Shown: positions 6,900-15,114, numbered from the stretch's first letter. The stretch is 64,000 nt of DNA from Methanobacteriota archaeon (GCA_002687935.1 NZBN01000002.1:102592-166591); one strand, 5' to 3'. Notes: generated by a model from the sequence alone, not told the origin. Made by a program: numbers and translations.

Positions 6900-7502
6900 T
6901 CAGTATTCCACACCCCAGCGACCCATAACACCGCGGTCAAATGGATGTTTTTCTCTTTGAAGAACTGTAACATAATCTGCCTCAGCTCGGATTTCTTCAG
7001 GAGCACCCCTACCTGTAAGAACTAGCTCAGTGGACTTGCTTTTGTTCTTTAACATTTCCAAAACATCCTCAGTTTTGATATATTTGAAACTGAGAGCAAC
7101 ATTTATTTCATCAAGAATAACAAGTCCAGAGTCTCCAGAGGATGTGACTTCTTTTGCGAGCTCAAGTGCGTCCTTGGAACTACTCACCATTTCAGTGCTA
7201 GTCATAAAACAATCTCTGCAGCTTCCACATGAATAATCCTTGTCCTTTTTGTACATCTCAGAGTAAGTACATTTTTTTCCAAATTGTTTTATTGTAAAAT
7301 TAGGCATAAAAGTCTCCGACGCCATGTACTCCCCAACATAAGTTCCCCCTTTCAGAAACTGTATCATGTAAACTTTTATGCCGTGTCCGATTGCACGTAA
7401 TGCCAATCCGAGAGCCGCAGTTGTTTTTCCCTTGCCATCTCCAGTATACACATGTACTAAACCAAGCCCAGTTTTTGCATCGCCTGTTTCCCCAAACCTC
7501 AT
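6900..7502 (-). CDS. cobO: ATP:cob(I)alamin adenosyltransferase (CobO/BtuR family)
   Basis: GLVHVYTGDGKGKTTAALGLALRA, IQFLKG, LVILDEI, ELVLTGRGAP, KHPFDRG. ATGA overlap with the upstream nrdJ. Confidence 0.95.
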   Translation of the reverse strand: MRFGETGDAKTGLGLVHVYTGDGKGKTTAALGLALRAIGHGIKVYMIQFLKGGTYVGEYMASETFMPNFTIKQFGKKCTYSEMYKKDKDYSCGSCRDCFMTSTEMVSSSKDALELAKEVTSSGDSGLVILDEINVALSFKYIKTEDVLEMLKNKSKSTELVLTGRGAPEEIRAEADYVTVLQREKHPFDRGVMGRWGVEY

Positions 7503-9550
7503 AGACTGTCGCCGGCAGATAAAACTTGATTCTGGTGACTTCCCTCCCGATATACGGTGATTCCCTTACATCCACTCTTCCATGCAAATACCAGAGAATC
7601 ATTTATTTCCTTCAGTGTTGCTGTGTTTTTCAAATTTGCCGTCTTTGAAACTGAATTGTCTACATATTTTTGAAGGGCTGCCTGAATTTTGATATGCCAT
7701 TCAGGGGGTATGTCAAGAGAACTAACAAAAACATCGTGAACCTTTTTTGGAACTTCGGTGAAATTTTGGATTGAGCCAGTCTTTGCAATCTCGGCCATCA
7801 AGGCAGGAGAATAGAAACCGCCATCCATAGCAATCTTCTCGAAGATTGGGTTCGTATATACAAAACGACTGTCCCCAAGAACAGTCATAACATATGAAAT
7901 CGCAAAATTTGGTTCACAGCCGGAAGACACACCTGCAAGAATACTGATAGTTCCCGTAGGTGCAATTGCAATGCAAGTTGCATTCCTCATACGCCTCTTA
8001 TTTTTATGATGAATAGAGCCTTCCCAGGCCGGAAAGGTTCCACGATCCTTTGCCAGTATTTCTGATGTATTATACGCAGTGTCTTTGATATATTTCATAA
8101 GTTTCTCAGCCATTGCAAGACCTTTTTTCGAATCGTATTTTATGTCAAGCATATAGAGCATGTCAGCAAACCCGAAGATGCCAAGACCTATCTTTCGTGT
8201 ACTCTTTGTCGCGAATTCTATGTCGTGATTTGCATAGCTGGCAACATCTATGGAATTGTCAAGGAATCTAACTGCTGTCCTGACTGTCTGCCGGAGAAGA
8301 CTCCAGTCAATATCACTCCAGTCAGACTTCACCATTGCAACCAAATTTATTGAACCCAGATTACAACTTTCATTGGGAAGAAGGGGAACCTCCCCACAGG
8401 GGCTTGTTGCTTCAATCTCCCCGAGGTGTTTGCAAGGATGTTTCTTATTTATCTGATCTATAAAAACAATGCCGGGATCCCCTGTGAGCCAGGCACTGTG
8501 AACTATTAAATCAAAAAGGTCCCTTGCCCGGACCTCTCTGTGCTTCTTTTTTGTGTTAGGGTCAATAAGGTTGAATTTTCCATCCTTCATAACAGCCTTC
8601 ATAAAATTGTCAGTTATAGCAACAGATATGTTAAAATTGCTGAGCCTTCCAAAGCGGTTCTTTGAGCTTATGAAATCGAAAATATCTGGATGGTCAATGC
8701 GGAGAATTCCCATATTGGCTCCTTTTCTTCTACCACCTTGTTTTATGGCATTTGCAGAACTGTCAAAAACATCCATAAAGGCAAGGGGACCAGCTGCAGT
8801 ATCTGCACCGCCTGCAACCATACCCCGTTTTCCACGAAGCCTTGTAAATGAGAAGCCAGTACCCCCACCATTCTTGTTTACAAGAGCAGCAGTCTGAAGA
8901 GTTCCGAATATACCGTTAATCGAATCCTCTATTGGAAGAACAAGGCAGGAAGATAATTGATTCATCTGAGTTCCTGCGTTTGTTATAAGTGTACTACTTG
9001 GGAGAAAGTAGAGATTTTTCATCATCTCATAAAATTCCGTCTCAGTTTTCTTTATAGATTTTGAGCCATATTCTTTTTCAGCCCCTGCAACGGCTTTTGA
9101 AACACGCTTGAGAAGCTGTTGAGGAGTCTCTGTAATTTTTCCTTTATAATCTTTGAGAAGACATCTTCCTTTAAGGACTTCGAGAGCGTAAGTTGAAAAG
9201 TTAAGATTGCTTTCCTTGAAACTCTCACCAAGAACAAATTCATGTTCAGTTCTTTCTTTCTCTCTCTCATGTCTGAAAAGAATATATGCCTTTGCCGTTC
9301 TGTAATGACCGCCCTCAACGAGAGCTTTCTCAACAACATCCTGTATAGCCTCAACACTTAGGACTTTTCCAGAATACTTAGTTCGAAGAGATTTTACAAC
9401 TTCCTGACCTATTGAATAGGCCATCTCCCGGTCTTTGCCGGCAACAGACTGTGCGGCATTCCAGATAGCGTCCTTAATCTTCCCTGGCTTAAAAGGGACA
9501 AGCTCCCCAGTTCTCTTCTTTACTCTGGATAACTTAGAAGTTTTTGCCAT
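7499..9550 (-). CDS. nrdJ: Class II (AdoCbl) ribonucleotide reductase paralog 2: ATP cone, SPCGE active-site variant, no Cys tail
   Basis: N-terminal VKKRTGELVPFKPGKIKDAI ATP cone; LSSCLVLP, QGGRRKGANMG, ATSPCGE, ESCNLGSINL, IAPTGTIS, KGITVYREGS. Ends QVLSAGDSL. Start re-called to ATG 9550. Confidence 0.9.
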   Translation of the reverse strand: MAKTSKLSRVKKRTGELVPFKPGKIKDAIWNAAQSVAGKDREMAYSIGQEVVKSLRTKYSGKVLSVEAIQDVVEKALVEGGHYRTAKAYILFRHEREKERTEHEFVLGESFKESNLNFSTYALEVLKGRCLLKDYKGKITETPQQLLKRVSKAVAGAEKEYGSKSIKKTETEFYEMMKNLYFLPSSTLITNAGTQMNQLSSCLVLPIEDSINGIFGTLQTAALVNKNGGGTGFSFTRLRGKRGMVAGGADTAAGPLAFMDVFDSSANAIKQGGRRKGANMGILRIDHPDIFDFISSKNRFGRLSNFNISVAITDNFMKAVMKDGKFNLIDPNTKKKHREVRARDLFDLIVHSAWLTGDPGIVFIDQINKKHPCKHLGEIEATSPCGEVPLLPNESCNLGSINLVAMVKSDWSDIDWSLLRQTVRTAVRFLDNSIDVASYANHDIEFATKSTRKIGLGIFGFADMLYMLDIKYDSKKGLAMAEKLMKYIKDTAYNTSEILAKDRGTFPAWEGSIHHKNKRRMRNATCIAIAPTGTISILAGVSSGCEPNFAISYVMTVLGDSRFVYTNPIFEKIAMDGGFYSPALMAEIAKTGSIQNFTEVPKKVHDVFVSSLDIPPEWHIKIQAALQKYVDNSVSKTANLKNTATLKEINDSLVFAWKSGCKGITVYREGSHQNQVLSAGDSL

Positions 9551-9571
9551 ATTTTGTATAGGCAATATTGA

Positions 9572-9579
9572 TATTTAAA
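9572..9579 (-). promoter_or_regulatory. Possible internal TATA box for nrdJ2-cobO
   Basis: TTTAAATA on the minus strand 22 nt upstream of ATG 9550, in the only non-overlapping junction of the cluster. Confidence 0.4.
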
Positions 9580-9807
9580 CTAAGAGTCGCACTTGCTCAT
9601 TCCACACTCAGGATTTGTACAGGAAGAACAGCCCTGTTCAACTTTTAGAGTATTTTTTCCACAATTTGGACATTTTGCAAGGGAAGCTTCATCAGTAGAC
9701 TCTTCTCCATCAGCAGAATCTGTATCAGAAGTCACTTCTTCTATTTCAGAGAGACTTTCCACTTCCTGTAGAGAAATTGTAGCTTGTCCGAATTTAATCA
9801 CCATCAC
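9580..9807 (-). CDS. Stand-alone NrdJ C-terminal Zn-ribbon/cysteine-tail protein
   Basis: Acidic linker then KCPNCG...EQGCSSCTNPECGMSKCDS, matching the usual class II RNR C-terminus. GTGA/TGATG overlap with nrdJ1 stop; GGGGGTG SD-like sequence upstream. Confidence 0.8.
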   Translation of the reverse strand: MMVIKFGQATISLQEVESLSEIEEVTSDTDSADGEESTDEASLAKCPNCGKNTLKVEQGCSSCTNPECGMSKCDS

Positions 9808-12314
9808 TTAACACCCCCTAAGTCAATCTTTCCAGATTTTACTGCATGATAAACTGTAGTCAGCCGACCATCTGCAAGAGATATTATACTGTCTCCTTTG
9901 AGAGTCTGCTTCTTGCCATCTTCAGAAGCTATTTTGAAGATCTTGTTCTTGAAATCCTGGAATTCTGAAGATTTGCTTCCAATACTGAGAATGGGGTAAC
10001 GACTCCCTTCCCTGTATATTGTTATACCTTTGAGACCCTTTCTCCATGCCTCAAGATACATGTTTGAAATCACCTCAGGCTCTATATCCTCAGGAAGATT
10101 ACAAGTGGATGAAATGCTGTGGTCTATGTATTTCTGGCAAATGGACTGAACCTCTATTCTCTTCTGCGGAACAATGTTATGAGCTGTTCTAAAGAAATGT
10201 TCAGGAAGTAGCCCCTTCAGAGAATCATCCGATTCCAGATTTTCAACTTTGTCAGAAAGTCCTTTAATATCCAAATAAGCCTGAACAGTTCCATGAAATA
10301 CTTTGAAAATTTTATTTCCGAAGGATTCTGAACGTCTTGTATAGTAGAGAGCAAAGATTGGCTCAACTCCGCCACTTACACCCATATAGTTTTTATCTCC
10401 GTCTTTAAAACCAAGAACTATATTTGAAATTGAACCAGTGGGGGCTATTGAAAGAAGTGCAATATTTCTAAGACCTTTTTCCTTAATGATTTGTTTTGTT
10501 TCTTCATCCAAGCTTTCCTGGAAAAAGGGATTTTTAGAATATTTCTCATAGTCATAAATAGCTGAGCTTCCTTTTTCCTCTGCGAGATGTGCAGAAGTTC
10601 TGTAAATTGTATTTGCGATGCGGCACATAACTTTCTCTATAATTTCAAGAGCTTCATCAGAATCATATCCAAGGCCAAGCTGATTCAAAAGGTCTGCAAT
10701 CCCCATAACACCGATACCGAGTCTGCGGGTTTCTCCGGCGGCAATTCTCTGACTCTCGAGAGCATTGAGGCTCTCATTCCATGTAACAACATTGTCAAGG
10801 AATCTTGTCAGATTTTTTGCAGAATGGTCGAGTCTCTCAAAATTAATTGAGGCATTATCAGTATATCCCTTGTCCACCATTCTTGAGAGATTTATAGAAC
10901 CTAAGTTGCAGGCACCTCCATCTTCAAGAGGAACTTCGCCACAAGGATTCGTTGAGCTTATGGGACGTTCGACATAGTTTGAAGGAGAATACTTAGTCAT
11001 AGAAGACCAGAAAATAAGTCCTGGTTCAGCAGTCTGATAATTTCCCTCAATGAAAAGATCCCAGACTTCTCTTGCCTTAACCAAATTTCTTACTTCCCCT
11101 GTATCATCTGATGCAAAATATAGTAAGAAATCACCAGAGTATTTGACAGCCAAGTCATAATCTTTGTTTGTTTCTAGCGAGTAATCACCATAAATATCTC
11201 TCTTTTTGATATCTTCAAGATCTGAAACATTTACCTTAAGGTCGTAATCACTGTGCAGTTTTTCATTGAGTGAGTCTATAGAGTCGAAATCCCCGAGTAG
11301 CTCGTATTCAGAAACATCTTTTGAAGGCACCCCATGGGAATAATTAAGAGCAAGAGTCTGAGGAGCTTTCATAACCGTTCCCTTCGGCTTTTTATAAAGA
11401 AGTAATTTATCAGAATCATGACTTGTTTGCTCGTCAACTGCCTGCATAAATTCATCTGAAACTTTTATACTTATATTTGCGAAACGGATTTGAGTATTGT
11501 CACGGACTTGTTTCTCAATTATTTCCAGCTGAGCATCAGTAAACTTGCCTGACCAGCTACACTGCTCAACAATTTGCTTAGTAACCCAGTTAGAAACCTT
11601 CTTTACTTTTAGGAAGTCCATAATGTCCGGATGCTTGACATCCAGAGTAAGCATAAGAGCACCTCTTCTTCCAGACTGACCAATTAGACCAGTAGTTAGT
11701 GAATAAATATCCATAAAAGAGACTGCCCCTGTAGATGTGTCAGCGGCGTTGTGGACCACAGCTCCCTTTGGACGAAGGGTGGATACATCAATCCCGATTC
11801 CCCCTCCATAAGATTCAGTTCTCGCGCACTGATATGCGGCATCATATATTGACTCTATACTGTCTTTTTTAATGAGAGCAACAAAGCAATTTGCAAGTGT
11901 TTTCAGGCGATAAAGATCTCCGGCTCCTGCGAGAACTCTCCCACCAGGAACATAATAACCATTATATAAATCATTGTAAAATTCAGACGCCCATTTTTCT
12001 CGCCCCTCATCAGAATCTTCAAGGGAAGCAATGAAGGCAGAAAGTCTTGCATAAACATCCTCTGGCCTCTTATCAACAAGATTTATGTCCAAATCCTTTA
12101 GATAATATTTTTTCTCGAATATGTTTTTTGCAAGTTCATTTCCGCAAAGATAGTCTGTAGAGTGGAGGGGAAGTGTCCCGTCTGCCTGTTTTTCCTTGAC
12201 ATATGAAAGAAGTTTTTTATAAGTCTGAACCGGTTCTTCACCAACTTTTTTAGCAAGATTGCTATCAAAATCAAACATATTAGCATAGCCATTAAGTGTT
12301 TCAGATTTTTGCAT
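9804..12314 (-). CDS. nrdJ: Class II (AdoCbl) ribonucleotide reductase paralog 1: canonical active site, no ATP cone, no Cys tail
   Basis: VPGGRVLAGAG, LANCFV, GQSGRRGALM, STNPCGEVPL, ACNLGSINL, IAPTGSIS, GLKGITIYREGSR. The C-terminal ~100 aa, including everything after the core, contain no Cys. Confidence 0.93.
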   Translation of the reverse strand: MQKSETLNGYANMFDFDSNLAKKVGEEPVQTYKKLLSYVKEKQADGTLPLHSTDYLCGNELAKNIFEKKYYLKDLDINLVDKRPEDVYARLSAFIASLEDSDEGREKWASEFYNDLYNGYYVPGGRVLAGAGDLYRLKTLANCFVALIKKDSIESIYDAAYQCARTESYGGGIGIDVSTLRPKGAVVHNAADTSTGAVSFMDIYSLTTGLIGQSGRRGALMLTLDVKHPDIMDFLKVKKVSNWVTKQIVEQCSWSGKFTDAQLEIIEKQVRDNTQIRFANISIKVSDEFMQAVDEQTSHDSDKLLLYKKPKGTVMKAPQTLALNYSHGVPSKDVSEYELLGDFDSIDSLNEKLHSDYDLKVNVSDLEDIKKRDIYGDYSLETNKDYDLAVKYSGDFLLYFASDDTGEVRNLVKAREVWDLFIEGNYQTAEPGLIFWSSMTKYSPSNYVERPISSTNPCGEVPLEDGGACNLGSINLSRMVDKGYTDNASINFERLDHSAKNLTRFLDNVVTWNESLNALESQRIAAGETRRLGIGVMGIADLLNQLGLGYDSDEALEIIEKVMCRIANTIYRTSAHLAEEKGSSAIYDYEKYSKNPFFQESLDEETKQIIKEKGLRNIALLSIAPTGSISNIVLGFKDGDKNYMGVSGGVEPIFALYYTRRSESFGNKIFKVFHGTVQAYLDIKGLSDKVENLESDDSLKGLLPEHFFRTAHNIVPQKRIEVQSICQKYIDHSISSTCNLPEDIEPEVISNMYLEAWRKGLKGITIYREGSRYPILSIGSKSSEFQDFKNKIFKIASEDGKKQTLKGDSIISLADGRLTTVYHAVKSGKIDLGGVK

Positions 12315-14125
12315 TATTTTTTCCTCCCCTCAAATTTGATATATTTTGAACCTGATTTCTGCGCCTTATCCAAAAGATTCTGAAGACCACCAGATTCTGG
12401 AACTGGAAGTGACTGTAAAGCTCCCCCCTCGAGAAATGGAAGTAAGCTAGACTCAGATAAAAGCTTATTGGATGCATCGAGCTCCGAGGAAGCCCAAAAG
12501 GAAGGAGTGTAAGCACCAATTTTTGATGCGGCATTATAATTTATTGAATCCACTTTAAAAAATCTCTCCAGAATTTGTGTAGCCGGGCACCCTGCTATTT
12601 GAAAATCCAGACCGCTTTGCGCTCTGTATTCTTCGGCATTTTCCTTCATCCTTCCAAGAACTTTGCGACCGAAGTCTTGGGCAGTTTTTTCAGATAACTG
12701 AGAACCAGTTACAAGTTCTACAAATTCATTCATCCCAGTTATTCCAAGTGAAAGTGGTTGGATATCCGGAATCAAATAAGACTCGTCGTCAAGAATTTTT
12801 TGCTGAAGAAACGGTAGAAGATTTCCTTCCATACTTCGATGAACGACTTCTCTTTTTAGGAAAAGTATGTCCTTTGCCGCCGCCATTCTCTGATCCAGAA
12901 TAGTAAAAATCCTAGCCTCATCACTGCCAGAATCATATGCAATTTTAGGAAGATTGAGAGTGACAGTTTGAAGAACTCCTCCACGTGAAACTTCACTCTT
13001 AGGATAATTGAAAACATACGATGAGTTTTGATATGTAAGACCTTCCTGATTTCCAAGAACGAAATGAGGAGTCTGGAATTTTTCTGCAAGTTCAAGTGCC
13101 TTGGAAAGTAAGTCCTCAGAAGGAGAATCCCCAAGGAAGAGATTAAGTTGAGGATAGTCAAAGGGCTTTCCTGCATAATCTCCCTGAATATAAATATCCA
13201 GGACAGCCATAGCAATGGATTTTGACTCTTCAGAATAGTCAGAGTAAACACCTTTAGTGGAACCGCCTGAAGAAACTGCATCAGAAGAGGCAAGATTTTT
13301 AGGAATCTCAAAATGCAAATCAATTGTAGAAGTCATAGTCTGACCCCCACGAGTTACATACATGTGGCTCATTTCAAAAACGAACATCTGAACCAGTTGT
13401 TTTATTTTTGTATAATCGAGACCTTTGACATATGGCGCAAGAAGAACATTGAAGGCTATGAGACCCTGACTCCCTGAGCAATTTATCTGTGCAGCAGATA
13501 GAACTCTAGAAGCCTGGAGGAAGGCCACATCAGAAGCCTTTGCAGGACCAGCGACAGGAGCGAAGAGTCCAAGTCCGTCAACTTTGAGACCATTTCTTAG
13601 GAAGGGTCTGAGATCATGTGAAAGGCAGTAAGGTCTTGTTGCAAAATAATTCAGCCGATGAATATGTAAATTCCCACTCATGTGGTCATCAACGCGAGTT
13701 GGCGGAAGTATATTCACATAGGTATATTCTCTTGAAACAAGGTCCGCCATCATTTTATGAACTGTTTCAGGATTATGTGGAATTTTTTCAGTCTCAGATG
13801 GACCTGTAAAAATTAGCTCACGGACATCATAGACAGGCATTCCAAGACGAGTGTACCTCATTCTGGCGGATTCGTAACCGTGTTCAAGAAGCTTCACGTT
13901 GACTATCTCCCTTATCAGAGGAGCAGTTAGATACTTTAAGTGCATTCTAGAGACATCGTGCTCAACTTCCTGAGAGATTGACTTGGCGATTGACTCATCT
14001 ATACTTGTCTCCTCCACCAGAGACCTTACAATCTTCTCCTTACTAAAGGGAACGAGAATATTTTGAGATGTCCTGACACGTACGGATTCAGGTTTTTCTA
14101 TTGAAGAGGAAACTTGCGCAGTCAT
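12314..14125 (-). CDS. Class III (NrdD)-like protein with ATP cone, catalytically degenerate and C-terminally truncated
   Basis: ATP cone, then LTAPLIREIVNVKLLEHG, GNLHIH, RPYCLSHDLR, RGGQT, GKPFDYP, GVLQTVTLNLPKIA. Lacks the C-terminal CxxC pairs and RxxGY loop. Start re-called to ATG 14125 (AGGTGG SD). Confidence 0.85.
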   Translation of the reverse strand: MTAQVSSSIEKPESVRVRTSQNILVPFSKEKIVRSLVEETSIDESIAKSISQEVEHDVSRMHLKYLTAPLIREIVNVKLLEHGYESARMRYTRLGMPVYDVRELIFTGPSETEKIPHNPETVHKMMADLVSREYTYVNILPPTRVDDHMSGNLHIHRLNYFATRPYCLSHDLRPFLRNGLKVDGLGLFAPVAGPAKASDVAFLQASRVLSAAQINCSGSQGLIAFNVLLAPYVKGLDYTKIKQLVQMFVFEMSHMYVTRGGQTMTSTIDLHFEIPKNLASSDAVSSGGSTKGVYSDYSEESKSIAMAVLDIYIQGDYAGKPFDYPQLNLFLGDSPSEDLLSKALELAEKFQTPHFVLGNQEGLTYQNSSYVFNYPKSEVSRGGVLQTVTLNLPKIAYDSGSDEARIFTILDQRMAAAKDILFLKREVVHRSMEGNLLPFLQQKILDDESYLIPDIQPLSLGITGMNEFVELVTGSQLSEKTAQDFGRKVLGRMKENAEEYRAQSGLDFQIAGCPATQILERFFKVDSINYNAASKIGAYTPSFWASSELDASNKLLSESSLLPFLEGGALQSLPVPESGGLQNLLDKAQKSGSKYIKFEGRKK

Positions 14126-14134
14126 TTCTACCAC

Positions 14135-14220
14135 CTTAAAACTTTCTTATGTGTATTTTGTGATAATTCAAAAAGCTTTAAATACATTTTTAAACCATAC
14201 ACACATTAAACCGATTAAAG
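14135..14220. promoter_or_regulatory. Divergent promoter region between RNR cluster and TrmB regulator
   Basis: 86-nt AT-rich gap with TTTAAATA and TTTTAAA tracts and short TGTATTT/AAATACA inverted half-sites. Confidence 0.45.
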
Positions 14221-15114
14221 GTGGGAAATATGCTAGACCCTGAATTCAGAACACTACTCAAAGAAGAATATGGTTTCAGAGAAAACCACTTAATTTTGCT
14301 AAGCCATTTTATGTCTAATAAAAAAAAGAAACTTTCAGCAGAAAGTCTTTGGACTGAAACTGAAGTTCCTAAAGGAAGGATTTACGAATTTTTAAACGAC
14401 CTTGTTGACTGGGGATTCCTTGAAGTTGAATACAAAAAACCAAAAACCTACTCAATACTAAACCTGAAGGAAGCTCTACAAAACGCCATAAGTAGGAAAG
14501 AACGAAAATTAACTGAGACAGAAAAAAAGACTCTTGAAATGGCAAACAAAATAGAAAAAAGCTGGCGTACAGAAGTCGGAGAAAAAACAGGGAGCATACA
14601 AATTATAAGCAGTCCTGAGGAATTTTACATAAAAGCCCGTGAAATGTTAATGGACAGTACAGAGGCGAAGGTTTCAGAAAGAACACCTCTCCTCTTCCTT
14701 TCTACAGAAAGGAACTCAACATGGAGGAGGAGAACTTATGAGAGCATGATAGATATGACAGAAGCAAAGCGCCTAGATTTGAAATATATATTCTCTCTTG
14801 AAAATATAATAAAAATTGCATCTGAAAATGAAAACGCAGATGAAGTAATAAACAGTTTAAAGGATTCTCTTGAAAACGGCAACCTAACATGCAGATATGT
14901 AGCAGGAACCGGAATTGAGAGCATGCTTATTGTAAAAGACAGAGCACTTCTTGGAATTGTTTCTCCTAAAAGCGGATCTGTGGAAAATGGATTATACACT
15001 GAATCGAAGGAAATGGTGGATTCACTCCACAAGATGTATGACCTTGTATTTGATGAAGCTGAAACCCTTGGAATTAAAACTCTGCAGATATTAGGAAAGG
15101 CCCTGGAAGAATAA
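14221..15114 (+). CDS. TrmB-family transcriptional regulator
   Basis: N-terminal wHTH (LSAESLWTETEVPKGRIYEFLNDLVDWGFLEV...PKTY), coiled coil, then C-terminal effector-type domain. Confidence 0.85.
   Translation: MGNMLDPEFRTLLKEEYGFRENHLILLSHFMSNKKKKLSAESLWTETEVPKGRIYEFLNDLVDWGFLEVEYKKPKTYSILNLKEALQNAISRKERKLTETEKKTLEMANKIEKSWRTEVGEKTGSIQIISSPEEFYIKAREMLMDSTEAKVSERTPLLFLSTERNSTWRRRTYESMIDMTEAKRLDLKYIFSLENIIKIASENENADEVINSLKDSLENGNLTCRYVAGTGIESMLIVKDRALLGIVSPKSGSVENGLYTESKEMVDSLHKMYDLVFDEAETLGIKTLQILGKALEE

Follow-up and report, generated by a model that had tools for sequence, protein, structure and literature searches.

Several described ribonucleotide reductases (RNRs) resemble parts of the operon considered here, which occupies positions 6900-14134 of a 64,000-nucleotide (nt) stretch of DNA from a Methanobacteriota archaeon (GCA_002687935.1 NZBN01000002.1:102592-166591); the whole stretch is referred to as the window, and positions are counted from its first letter. 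The operon carries five genes on the minus strand, encoding in 5′ to 3′ order a homologue of class III RNR (NrdD-like), a class II RNR (NrdJ1), a short cysteine (Cys)-rich tail, a second class II paralogue (NrdJ2), and a protein of the ATP:corrinoid adenosyltransferase type (CobO). A TrmB-family regulator gene diverges from it. Among class II enzymes, the Cys-rich domain (CRD) is established as a separate gene for NrdJa+b (PMC5704485, PMC9669993). In this Pseudomonas aeruginosa type (PMC4520616, PMC5704485, PMC9669993), as in the present operon, a tail-less catalytic barrel subunit with an extra small C-terminal domain is followed by a gene for a Cys-rich zinc-finger redox domain; the arrangement of Caldithrix relatives is identical, with CobO upstream. 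The second gene of the present pair differs in that it encodes 74 amino acids (aa), consisting of a zinc finger and an acidic linker without the IscU-like/TSCPD domain.

Dimeric class II enzymes with a fused CRD are represented by NrdJd of Stackebrandtia nassauensis and by T. maritima NrdJ (PMC5704485). The whole core of NrdJ2 aligns with the T. maritima enzyme and its orthologues in sister families have a fused CRD, whereas NrdJ2 itself is devoid of the CRD, with serine (Ser) in place of the asparagine (Asn) of the NxCxE motif and PSST in place of PNSP. The system to be compared with the NrdD-like protein is class III NrdD with an ATP cone (S. thermophilus, P. copri, and T4; PMC12662201, PMC11226230). 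By contrast, the NrdD-like protein has no zinc ribbon, glycyl-radical domain (GRD), or finger-loop Cys, no activase was found in the genome, and its gene adjoins B12-dependent RNR genes rather than nrdG. Furthermore, genomes with two NrdJs have been described (PMC8365446), and the paralogues of the present operon likewise derive from different motif lineages, one with the PGGR loop of the nucleoside triphosphate (NTP) type and the other with a PNSP-derived loop. They differ from the described pairs because the PSST loop of NrdJ2 lies outside the reported variants and because NrdJ2 has neither a tail nor the catalytic Asn.

The locus is probably best read as three generations of RNR in one operon, with a conserved putative divergent promoter in common with TrmB. 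The replacement series would run from class III through a resident class II to an acquired split class II enzyme, older copies being retained for another job, probably nucleotide sensing via the ATP cone. RNR is heavily studied, yet literature searches found no dead alpha-type paralogues (NrdD or NrdJ) kept under selection, either as partners or as pseudoenzymes. The same searches found no description of a GRD-less and Cys-less NrdD family beside B12-dependent RNR genes, of tail-less NrdJ variants with non-canonical finger loops, or of a three-layer replacement history like that of this operon. A parallel is offered by yeast Rnr2-Rnr4, in which a catalytically dead RNR paralogue is under selection as the partner of an active one, although the radical-generating beta subunit is concerned there and alpha-type proteins are concerned here. 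The locus and its wider family, which also takes in a Woesearchaeota clade of tail-less NQCGE NrdJs with fixed synteny, would provide a concrete and testable case of the replacement of an essential enzyme. They also bear on DPANN biology, as an archaeon with a genome of ~0.7 Mb devotes ~8 kb to the supply and control of deoxynucleoside triphosphates.

An earlier note on this DNA had described five co-oriented genes with TrmB divergent from them, and the open reading frames (ORFs) bear this out. The overlaps that it had read are present: TAATG joins the NrdD-like stop to the NrdJ1 start, GTGATG joins the NrdJ1 stop to the tail start with the NrdJ1 TGA inside (TGATG), and ATGA joins the NrdJ2 stop to the CobO start. 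The tail stop and the ATG of NrdJ2 are 29 nt apart, and not 30 nt as given there. Profile searches identify the RNR genes of the locus as the sole RNR genes of the host genome, which measures 0.67 Mb at a completeness of 86.6%.

The NrdD-Like Protein and Its Truncated Family

The NrdD-like ORF (12314-14134, minus strand) encodes 606 aa comprising an ATP cone and a class III RNR barrel. The NRDD domain is recognized by PF13597 with an E-value of 3.1e-80, the match covering profile positions 4-503 of 562, and the score of 244.7 against the equivalog model TIGR02487 falls below the cut-off of 326.35. Identity to intact archaeal NrdDs of 700-800 aa is 42-48%. The protein ends just before the zinc ribbon and the RITGYY glycyl-radical motif of these relatives, both of which are absent, and its finger loop reads TYQNS in place of the CYQCC of full-length relatives, the thiyl-radical Cys being gone. 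Neither the window nor any of 12 related loci contains a stand-alone ORF for a zinc ribbon and glycyl-radical domain, and no NrdG activase scores above the cut-off in the 86.6% of the genome that is represented, the best match being TIGR02495 at 16.7 bits against 131. The AlphaFold2 model of the protein has a predicted local distance difference test (pLDDT) score of 87.7 and a predicted template modeling score of 0.84, and its best fold matches are solved NrdD structures (E-values 6e-28 to 1e-20). Because the zinc ribbon, the GRD, and the finger-loop Cys are missing and no activase was found, the NrdD-like protein is not considered a reductase; sequence and model together indicate a folded class III scaffold incapable of radical chemistry. 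The damaged active site claimed for it earlier is therefore real, and the protein is dead by motif loss without being in decay, as the ratio of nonsynonymous to synonymous substitution rates (dN/dS) is 0.08-0.15.

The truncation recurs across a wider family. A family alignment of 78 sequences combined references with those of the best 150 representatives (clustered at 50% identity) that measure 560-820 aa. Truncation at the same point is seen in 22 of these 78 sequences, namely the protein of this operon, one close relative, and 20 others, and the finger-loop Cys is present in none of the 22. According to the tree, the truncated state arose at least twice, and each origin is marked by a long stem followed by conserved descendants. 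When the conservation level of truncated proteins is set against that of full-length proteins, the ATP cone keeps 91% and the barrel regions keep 50-66%.

The genomic context of the truncated genes is also distinctive. In six of 12 lineages (this genus, G010, L033, L049, L034, and L059), which come from all three truncated clades, the truncated NrdD-like gene has a cone-bearing NrdJ no more than 10 kb away, against ~1 of ~125 intact loci with the glycyl-radical domain. CobO follows the neighboring NrdJ in five of the six lineages, and the contig of G010 ends inside the NrdJ gene. The full sequence of the neighboring NrdJ is available for L033, L034, L049, and L059; all four have a fused tail, and three have a plain NPCGE loop, a motif search having found none in the 1714-aa reading frame of L049. 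Because the neighboring NrdJs in four of the five other lineages own both a cone and a fused tail, the NrdD-like protein does not simply lend a cone, and the suggestion that it merely donates the missing domain is not supported by these sequences. An RNR matching PF02867 is encoded in seven of nine genomes with a truncated NrdD-like gene. A metagenome scan for further contexts of truncated genes returned few new ones and mostly intact NrdD.

Several further NrdD variants were observed in the course of these comparisons. In the same order as the host, the NrdD-like gene of G010 (L019/L036) is not intact, as two TAA codons fall in frame and a stretch of N interrupts it. A stand-alone ATP-cone protein of 108 aa is encoded at positions 1417-1743 of locus L022, ~2.5 kb from a truncated NrdD-like gene and with no RNR gene nearby. 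The NrdD homologues of four Altiarchaeota loci (L048, L050, L054, and L056) carry the zinc ribbon with RDTGH in place of RITGY, and the finger-loop segment and bottom Cys are apparently absent from them; they may constitute a third kind of inactive NrdD. Other NrdDs, from Ratteibacteria, Vermiphilus, Omnitrophota, and an unclassified bacterial metagenome-assembled genome (L074, L078, L094, and L107), end after the zinc ribbon and have no glycyl-radical motif, with the CC finger loop kept, and may be split NrdDs. Locus L121 contains tandem NrdDs, the end of the full-length copy (RITGYY) lying directly upstream of a second copy in which the CC loop and zinc ribbon are present but which stops before the glycyl-radical motif; P0021 and P0023 belong to the same type.

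NrdJ1 and Its Free-Standing Tail

NrdJ1 (9804-12314, minus strand; 836 aa) is a cone-less and tail-less class II RNR of the NrdJa-like type that scores 491.6 against TIGR02504 (cut-off 399.95). Its catalytic residues are N456, P457, C458, G, and E460 (NPCGE), and its redox pair is formed by C143 and C469; alignment with 34 relatives shows no variation at N456, P457, C458, E460, C143, or C469. The description of NrdJ1 as the sole copy with fully canonical catalytic motifs and with neither a cone nor a Cys tail is thus accurate. The C-terminus of NrdJ1 contains no Cys, and that of NrdJ2 likewise contains none. The apical loop of NrdJ1 is PGGR, the triphosphate (NTP)-type motif (PMC8365446), which predicts NTPs as substrates, and the presence of CobO in the same operon supports a putative adenosylcobalamin-dependent reduction. 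The relatives of NrdJ1 at 60-64% identity are of two kinds: ~830-aa proteins of Caldithrix, Calditrichota, and Bacteroidota with an equal end point and no C-terminal Cys, and ~1000-aa proteins of Woesearchaeota that begin with a cone and end in a fused zinc finger. Within the order of the host, NrdJ1-type matches are confined to this genus. An insertion of ~100 aa relative to the Pfam model is found in the NrdJ1 barrel (residues ~240-400, window positions 10100-10600) and is kept in Caldithrix-type relatives.

The tail ORF (9580-9807, minus strand) encodes 75 aa from a GTG start and 74 aa from a conserved ATG at 9804. Its product matches solely positions 713-758 of the 759-position NrdJ model NF006417. 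Six invariant Cys residues are arranged as C-x2-C-x10-C-x2-C-x4-C-x4-C, and the same spacing occurs in the fused tails of NrdJ1-type proteins, whereas the spacing in fused tails of the resident cone-NrdJ type differs from it. Caldithrix abyssi has the gene order CobO, tail-less NrdJ, and a separate gene for a 207-aa TSCPD/zinc-finger protein. The tail is 42% identical to the last 48 aa of Caldithrix NrdJb, the rest of NrdJb remaining unaligned. The 75-aa product has no Pfam match, hence no IscU-like/TSCPD domain, and the TSCPD domain (PF12637) was found nowhere in the host genome. As in split NrdJa+b, the tail is a separate gene adjoining the catalytic gene, and it occupies its own frame in three species. 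The earlier claim of a redox tail as a separate gene consequently stands, and the gene is conserved, its six-Cys finger being homologous to the fused tails and to Caldithrix NrdJb. The redox subunit encoded in trans is likewise real, and it amounts to a small variant of the arrangement already known from NrdJa+b. With 74 aa and no domain other than the zinc finger, it is the smallest redox tail known as a separate class II RNR product and should be useful for dissecting CRD docking and electron delivery.

Complex prediction, which the earlier note had proposed for all pairs, was run for NrdJ1 with the tail and gave a score of 0.53, the best control reaching 0.01. Of 80 solved complexes, 58 attain the mark adopted for such predictions, as do two of 110 mismatched pairs, and scores at the mark but no higher than 0.60 are obtained for seven of the 80 solved complexes and for both mismatches. 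At least 78% of contacts agree among prediction runs, and the pLDDT of the partner is at least 58. The model thus lends weak support to a complex of NrdJ1 with its tail. A thioredoxin is encoded elsewhere in the host genome. Because homology and gene order provide a strong prior, NrdJ1, the tail, and CobO are read together as a putative functional reductase.

NrdJ2 and Related Cone-Bearing NrdJs

The NrdJ2 ORF (7499-9565, with an ATG at 9550; minus strand) encodes a cone-bearing, tail-less class II RNR paralogue. It comprises an ATP cone and an NrdJ region scoring 655.5 against TIGR02504 (cut-off 399.95), and it aligns across the whole core with T. maritima NrdJ (E-value 7.5e-109). Its finger loop reads S388-P-C390-G-E392 (SPCGE) throughout the genus, departing from NxCxE, and its apical loop reads PSST, which is of neither the PNSP nor the PAGR type. 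These departures are rare: NPCxE is found in 3175 of 3347 class II sequences (PMC9669993), PNSP or PAGR occurs in >97% of NrdJ sequences (PMC8365446), and essential invariance in class II is reported for the NxCxE Asn as well as for PNSP positions 2-4 (PMC9669993, PMC8365446). NrdJ2 keeps the thiyl-radical residue C390, E392, and the redox pair C207 and C401. The altered active site attributed to it earlier on account of SPCGE is therefore confirmed, and PSST is a second derived change in a substrate-contacting motif, whereas its status as a pseudoenzyme is unproven since these four residues are retained.

More than 20 residues of NrdJ2 are changed that are otherwise invariant in both neighboring clades, and in the tree its stem measures 0.75 substitutions per site, the terminal branches after it being short. 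In three sister families (G003, G007, and G012), the one NrdJ present is cone-bearing, reads TNPCGE, and has a zinc-finger tail fused to it; CobO comes after it in G012. The cone-NrdJ of G010 carries an intein exactly at the catalytic Cys of NPCGE, and the gene runs off the contig. These sequences identify NrdJ2 as the resident NrdJ of the order, with tail loss, SPCGE, and PSST restricted to this genus.

The nearest relatives of NrdJ2 (52-56% identity) include a Woesearchaeota clade of ~685 aa that is cone-bearing and tail-less, reads NQC[GA]E at the finger loop, and sometimes misses one redox Cys; the tree shows a trichotomy with a long stem branch and does not settle whether NrdJ2 belongs inside this NQCGE clade. 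In four of four Woesearchaeota loci (L023, L116, L117, and L118), the gene order is a cone-less canonical NrdJ of ~1080 aa, the NQC[GA]E NrdJ, and a PduO-type adenosyltransferase. The cone-less protein is of the PF08471 type, and its tail was read in one translated locus. The pairing of a cone-less with a cone-bearing NrdJ thus recurs with non-homologous partners, and therefore a linked function is indicated. An NrdR gene lies upstream of the NrdJ block in three of the four loci.

Conservation and Selection

The same six-gene order is found in two congeneric species at 72-89% aa identity, and the arrangement is accordingly not unique to this assembly. Pairwise dN/dS among the three species lies at 0.03-0.16 across all genes: 0.08-0.15 for the NrdD-like gene, as given above, 0.06-0.09 for NrdJ2, 0.07-0.16 for the tail, 0.03-0.04 for CobO, and 0.04-0.09 for TrmB. 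Because these values are low throughout, no gene of the locus is decaying, and both altered paralogues are under purifying rather than relaxed selection. The stretch covering window positions 6900-14134 is present in near-identical form in marine, seawater, and hydrothermal-vent metagenomes of 16 studies, and therefore the host organism is widespread in the ocean. No RNA data set is listed among those that contain the stretch, a result that carries no information on transcription.

Evolution and Function of the Locus

The earlier note had viewed the locus as the parts of one polypeptide distributed over genes. A series of replacements in which older RNR genes were retained fits better with the gene content, motif losses, selection, synteny, and family distribution observed here. 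The NrdD-like protein would represent an older class III enzyme that lost the zinc ribbon, the glycyl-radical domain, and the thiyl Cys and kept a folded barrel and, above all, the ATP cone. NrdJ2 would be the original cone-bearing class II enzyme of the order. NrdJ1 and the tail would have been acquired by the genus and inserted downstream of the NrdD-like gene and upstream of the resident NrdJ. The resident NrdJ2 would then have lost its fused tail and replaced NPCGE by SPCGE and PNSP by PSST, purifying selection having maintained it ever since. At present, NrdJ1 would generate a thiyl radical from adenosylcobalamin and reduce nucleotides, the translationally coupled tail would pass electrons from thioredoxin to the active-site disulfide of NrdJ1, and CobO would adenosylate scavenged cobalamin and thereby supply adenosylcobalamin. 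The retained paralogues may serve the class II system as accessory or regulatory proteins that sense ATP and deoxyadenosine triphosphate (dATP); alternatively, NrdJ2 may be a specialized second reductase that borrows the free tail. A shared function of the locus genes is supported by gene neighborhoods, because truncated NrdD-like genes recur beside NrdJ and CobO and the Woesearchaeota NrdJ pairing holds in four of four loci.

Several points weigh against this replacement history. The order of events, with the arrival of NrdJ1 first and the change of NrdJ2 after it, is inferred from distribution. The absence of NrdG is not firm because the genome is 86.6% complete. Two of the nine genomes with a truncated NrdD-like gene have no PF02867 match, and in six of the 12 truncated lineages the available flank contains no RNR gene. 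The NrdJs of four of the five other adjacency lineages have their own cone and tail, which places the regulatory target of the NrdD-like protein in doubt. NrdJ2 may still be an active reductase, as it keeps C207, C390, E392, and C401, and genomes with two NrdJs are common (1108 organisms in a census), 69% being predicted to combine the nucleoside diphosphate (NDP) and NTP types (PMC8365446).

A broader proposal would unite the dead class III homologues and the tail-less cone-NrdJs in a so far unrecognized class of RNR alpha-type pseudo-subunits, spread over DPANN and Altiarchaeota, whose members would bind ATP/dATP and act in trans to control B12-dependent reductases that have no cone, NrdJ1 being regulated by two fossil paralogues. 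It is put forward tentatively and is rather unlikely to hold.

A physical version of such control, the hetero-oligomer proposed in the earlier note, in which NrdJ1 assembles with NrdJ2, with the NrdD-like protein, or with both, the cones providing dATP/ATP control in trans and the free tail re-reducing the complex, is the alternative that survives best, and we consider it doubtful. It gains from the recurrence, in this genus and in all four Woesearchaeota loci, of a cone-less canonical NrdJ followed by a cone-bearing, tail-less, non-canonical NrdJ and an adenosyltransferase. Furthermore, the stop/start overlaps suggest stoichiometric co-translation, cones are the best-conserved part of the dead NrdD-like proteins, and purifying selection acts on every part. 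However, NrdJ1 and NrdJ2 lie far apart in sequence (31% identity) and in the tree (branch length 2.7), and a conserved heterodimer interface is hard to picture because the Woesearchaeota partner NrdJ belongs to another subfamily, of the PF08471 type. The truncated NrdD-like genes elsewhere, moreover, adjoin NrdJs already equipped with both cone and tail.

Still less probable is a pair of independent, fully active class II isozymes, in which NrdJ1 would reduce NTPs, NrdJ2 would be cone-regulated with an altered preference for substrate or phosphate, both would use the tail in trans, and the NrdD-like protein would be a functionless relic. An isozyme role of NrdJ2 has some plausibility because two NrdJs per genome are common and usually of NDP and NTP types (PMC8365446), a combination that the PGGR loop of NrdJ1 and the descent of NrdJ2 from a PNSP (NDP-type) lineage would reproduce. 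The catalytic residues kept in NrdJ2 (thiyl Cys, Glu, and redox Cys pair) agree with such a role, and the position of the tail gene between both NrdJ genes could explain why NrdJ2 dispenses with a tail of its own. By contrast, NrdJ2 alters precisely the Asn and the PNSP positions 2-4 that are essentially invariant in class II (PMC9669993, PMC8365446), and the NrdD-like gene is not a decaying relic because of its dN/dS of 0.08-0.15 and the old, diverse clades of intact ORFs to which it belongs.

An assembly or annotation artefact, whereby a sequencing frameshift would have split one NrdJ1/tail gene and an error would have shortened the NrdD-like gene, is suggested by the overlap of the tail start with the NrdJ1 stop and by the fused forms known in Woesearchaeota, and is refuted with near certainty by the identical frame change in three species at 72-86% aa identity, by a TAA directly upstream of the start that closes the tail frame, by contigs from four independent runs that differ from the stretch by three base substitutions and zero insertions or deletions (two of the four runs having contigs across the junction), and by the one structural end point shared by truncated NrdD-like proteins in >20 clusters.

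CobO, TrmB, and the Candidate Control Region

The last gene of the operon, CobO (6900-7502, minus strand), encodes 200 aa and is recognized by PF02572 with a score of 184.3 against 25.7; the P-loop GDGKGKTT is present. The score against TIGR00708 (165.6) lies slightly below the cut-off of 167.75. Its inclusion in the unit, as the earlier note had it, is sustained by the ATGA overlap with NrdJ2 and by the recurrence of an adenosyltransferase of the CobO or PduO type after NrdJ in L033, L034, L049, L059, L202, and four Woesearchaeota loci.

The TrmB-family transcription regulator (14221-15114, plus strand) is divergent from the RNR operon and matches PF01978 over residues 14-81 (E-value 4.7e-08). 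Both congeners have its orthologue at this position, with 88-89% aa identity. A scan for bacterial-type promoters and terminators, a method unsuited to archaea, gave counts equal to those of shuffled sequences. The divergent intergenic region between the NrdD-like and TrmB genes (14135-14220, 86 nt, no strand assigned) shows a mean column identity of 97% among three species in a 111-column alignment spanning the region, and in comparisons of G000 with the others, synonymous positions in the genes on either side approach saturation (dS 1.0-1.9). Within this candidate control region, an 8-bp inverted repeat, ATGTGTAT ... ATACACAT, surrounds two A/T-rich TATA-like boxes and is likely to represent the TrmB operator/promoter.

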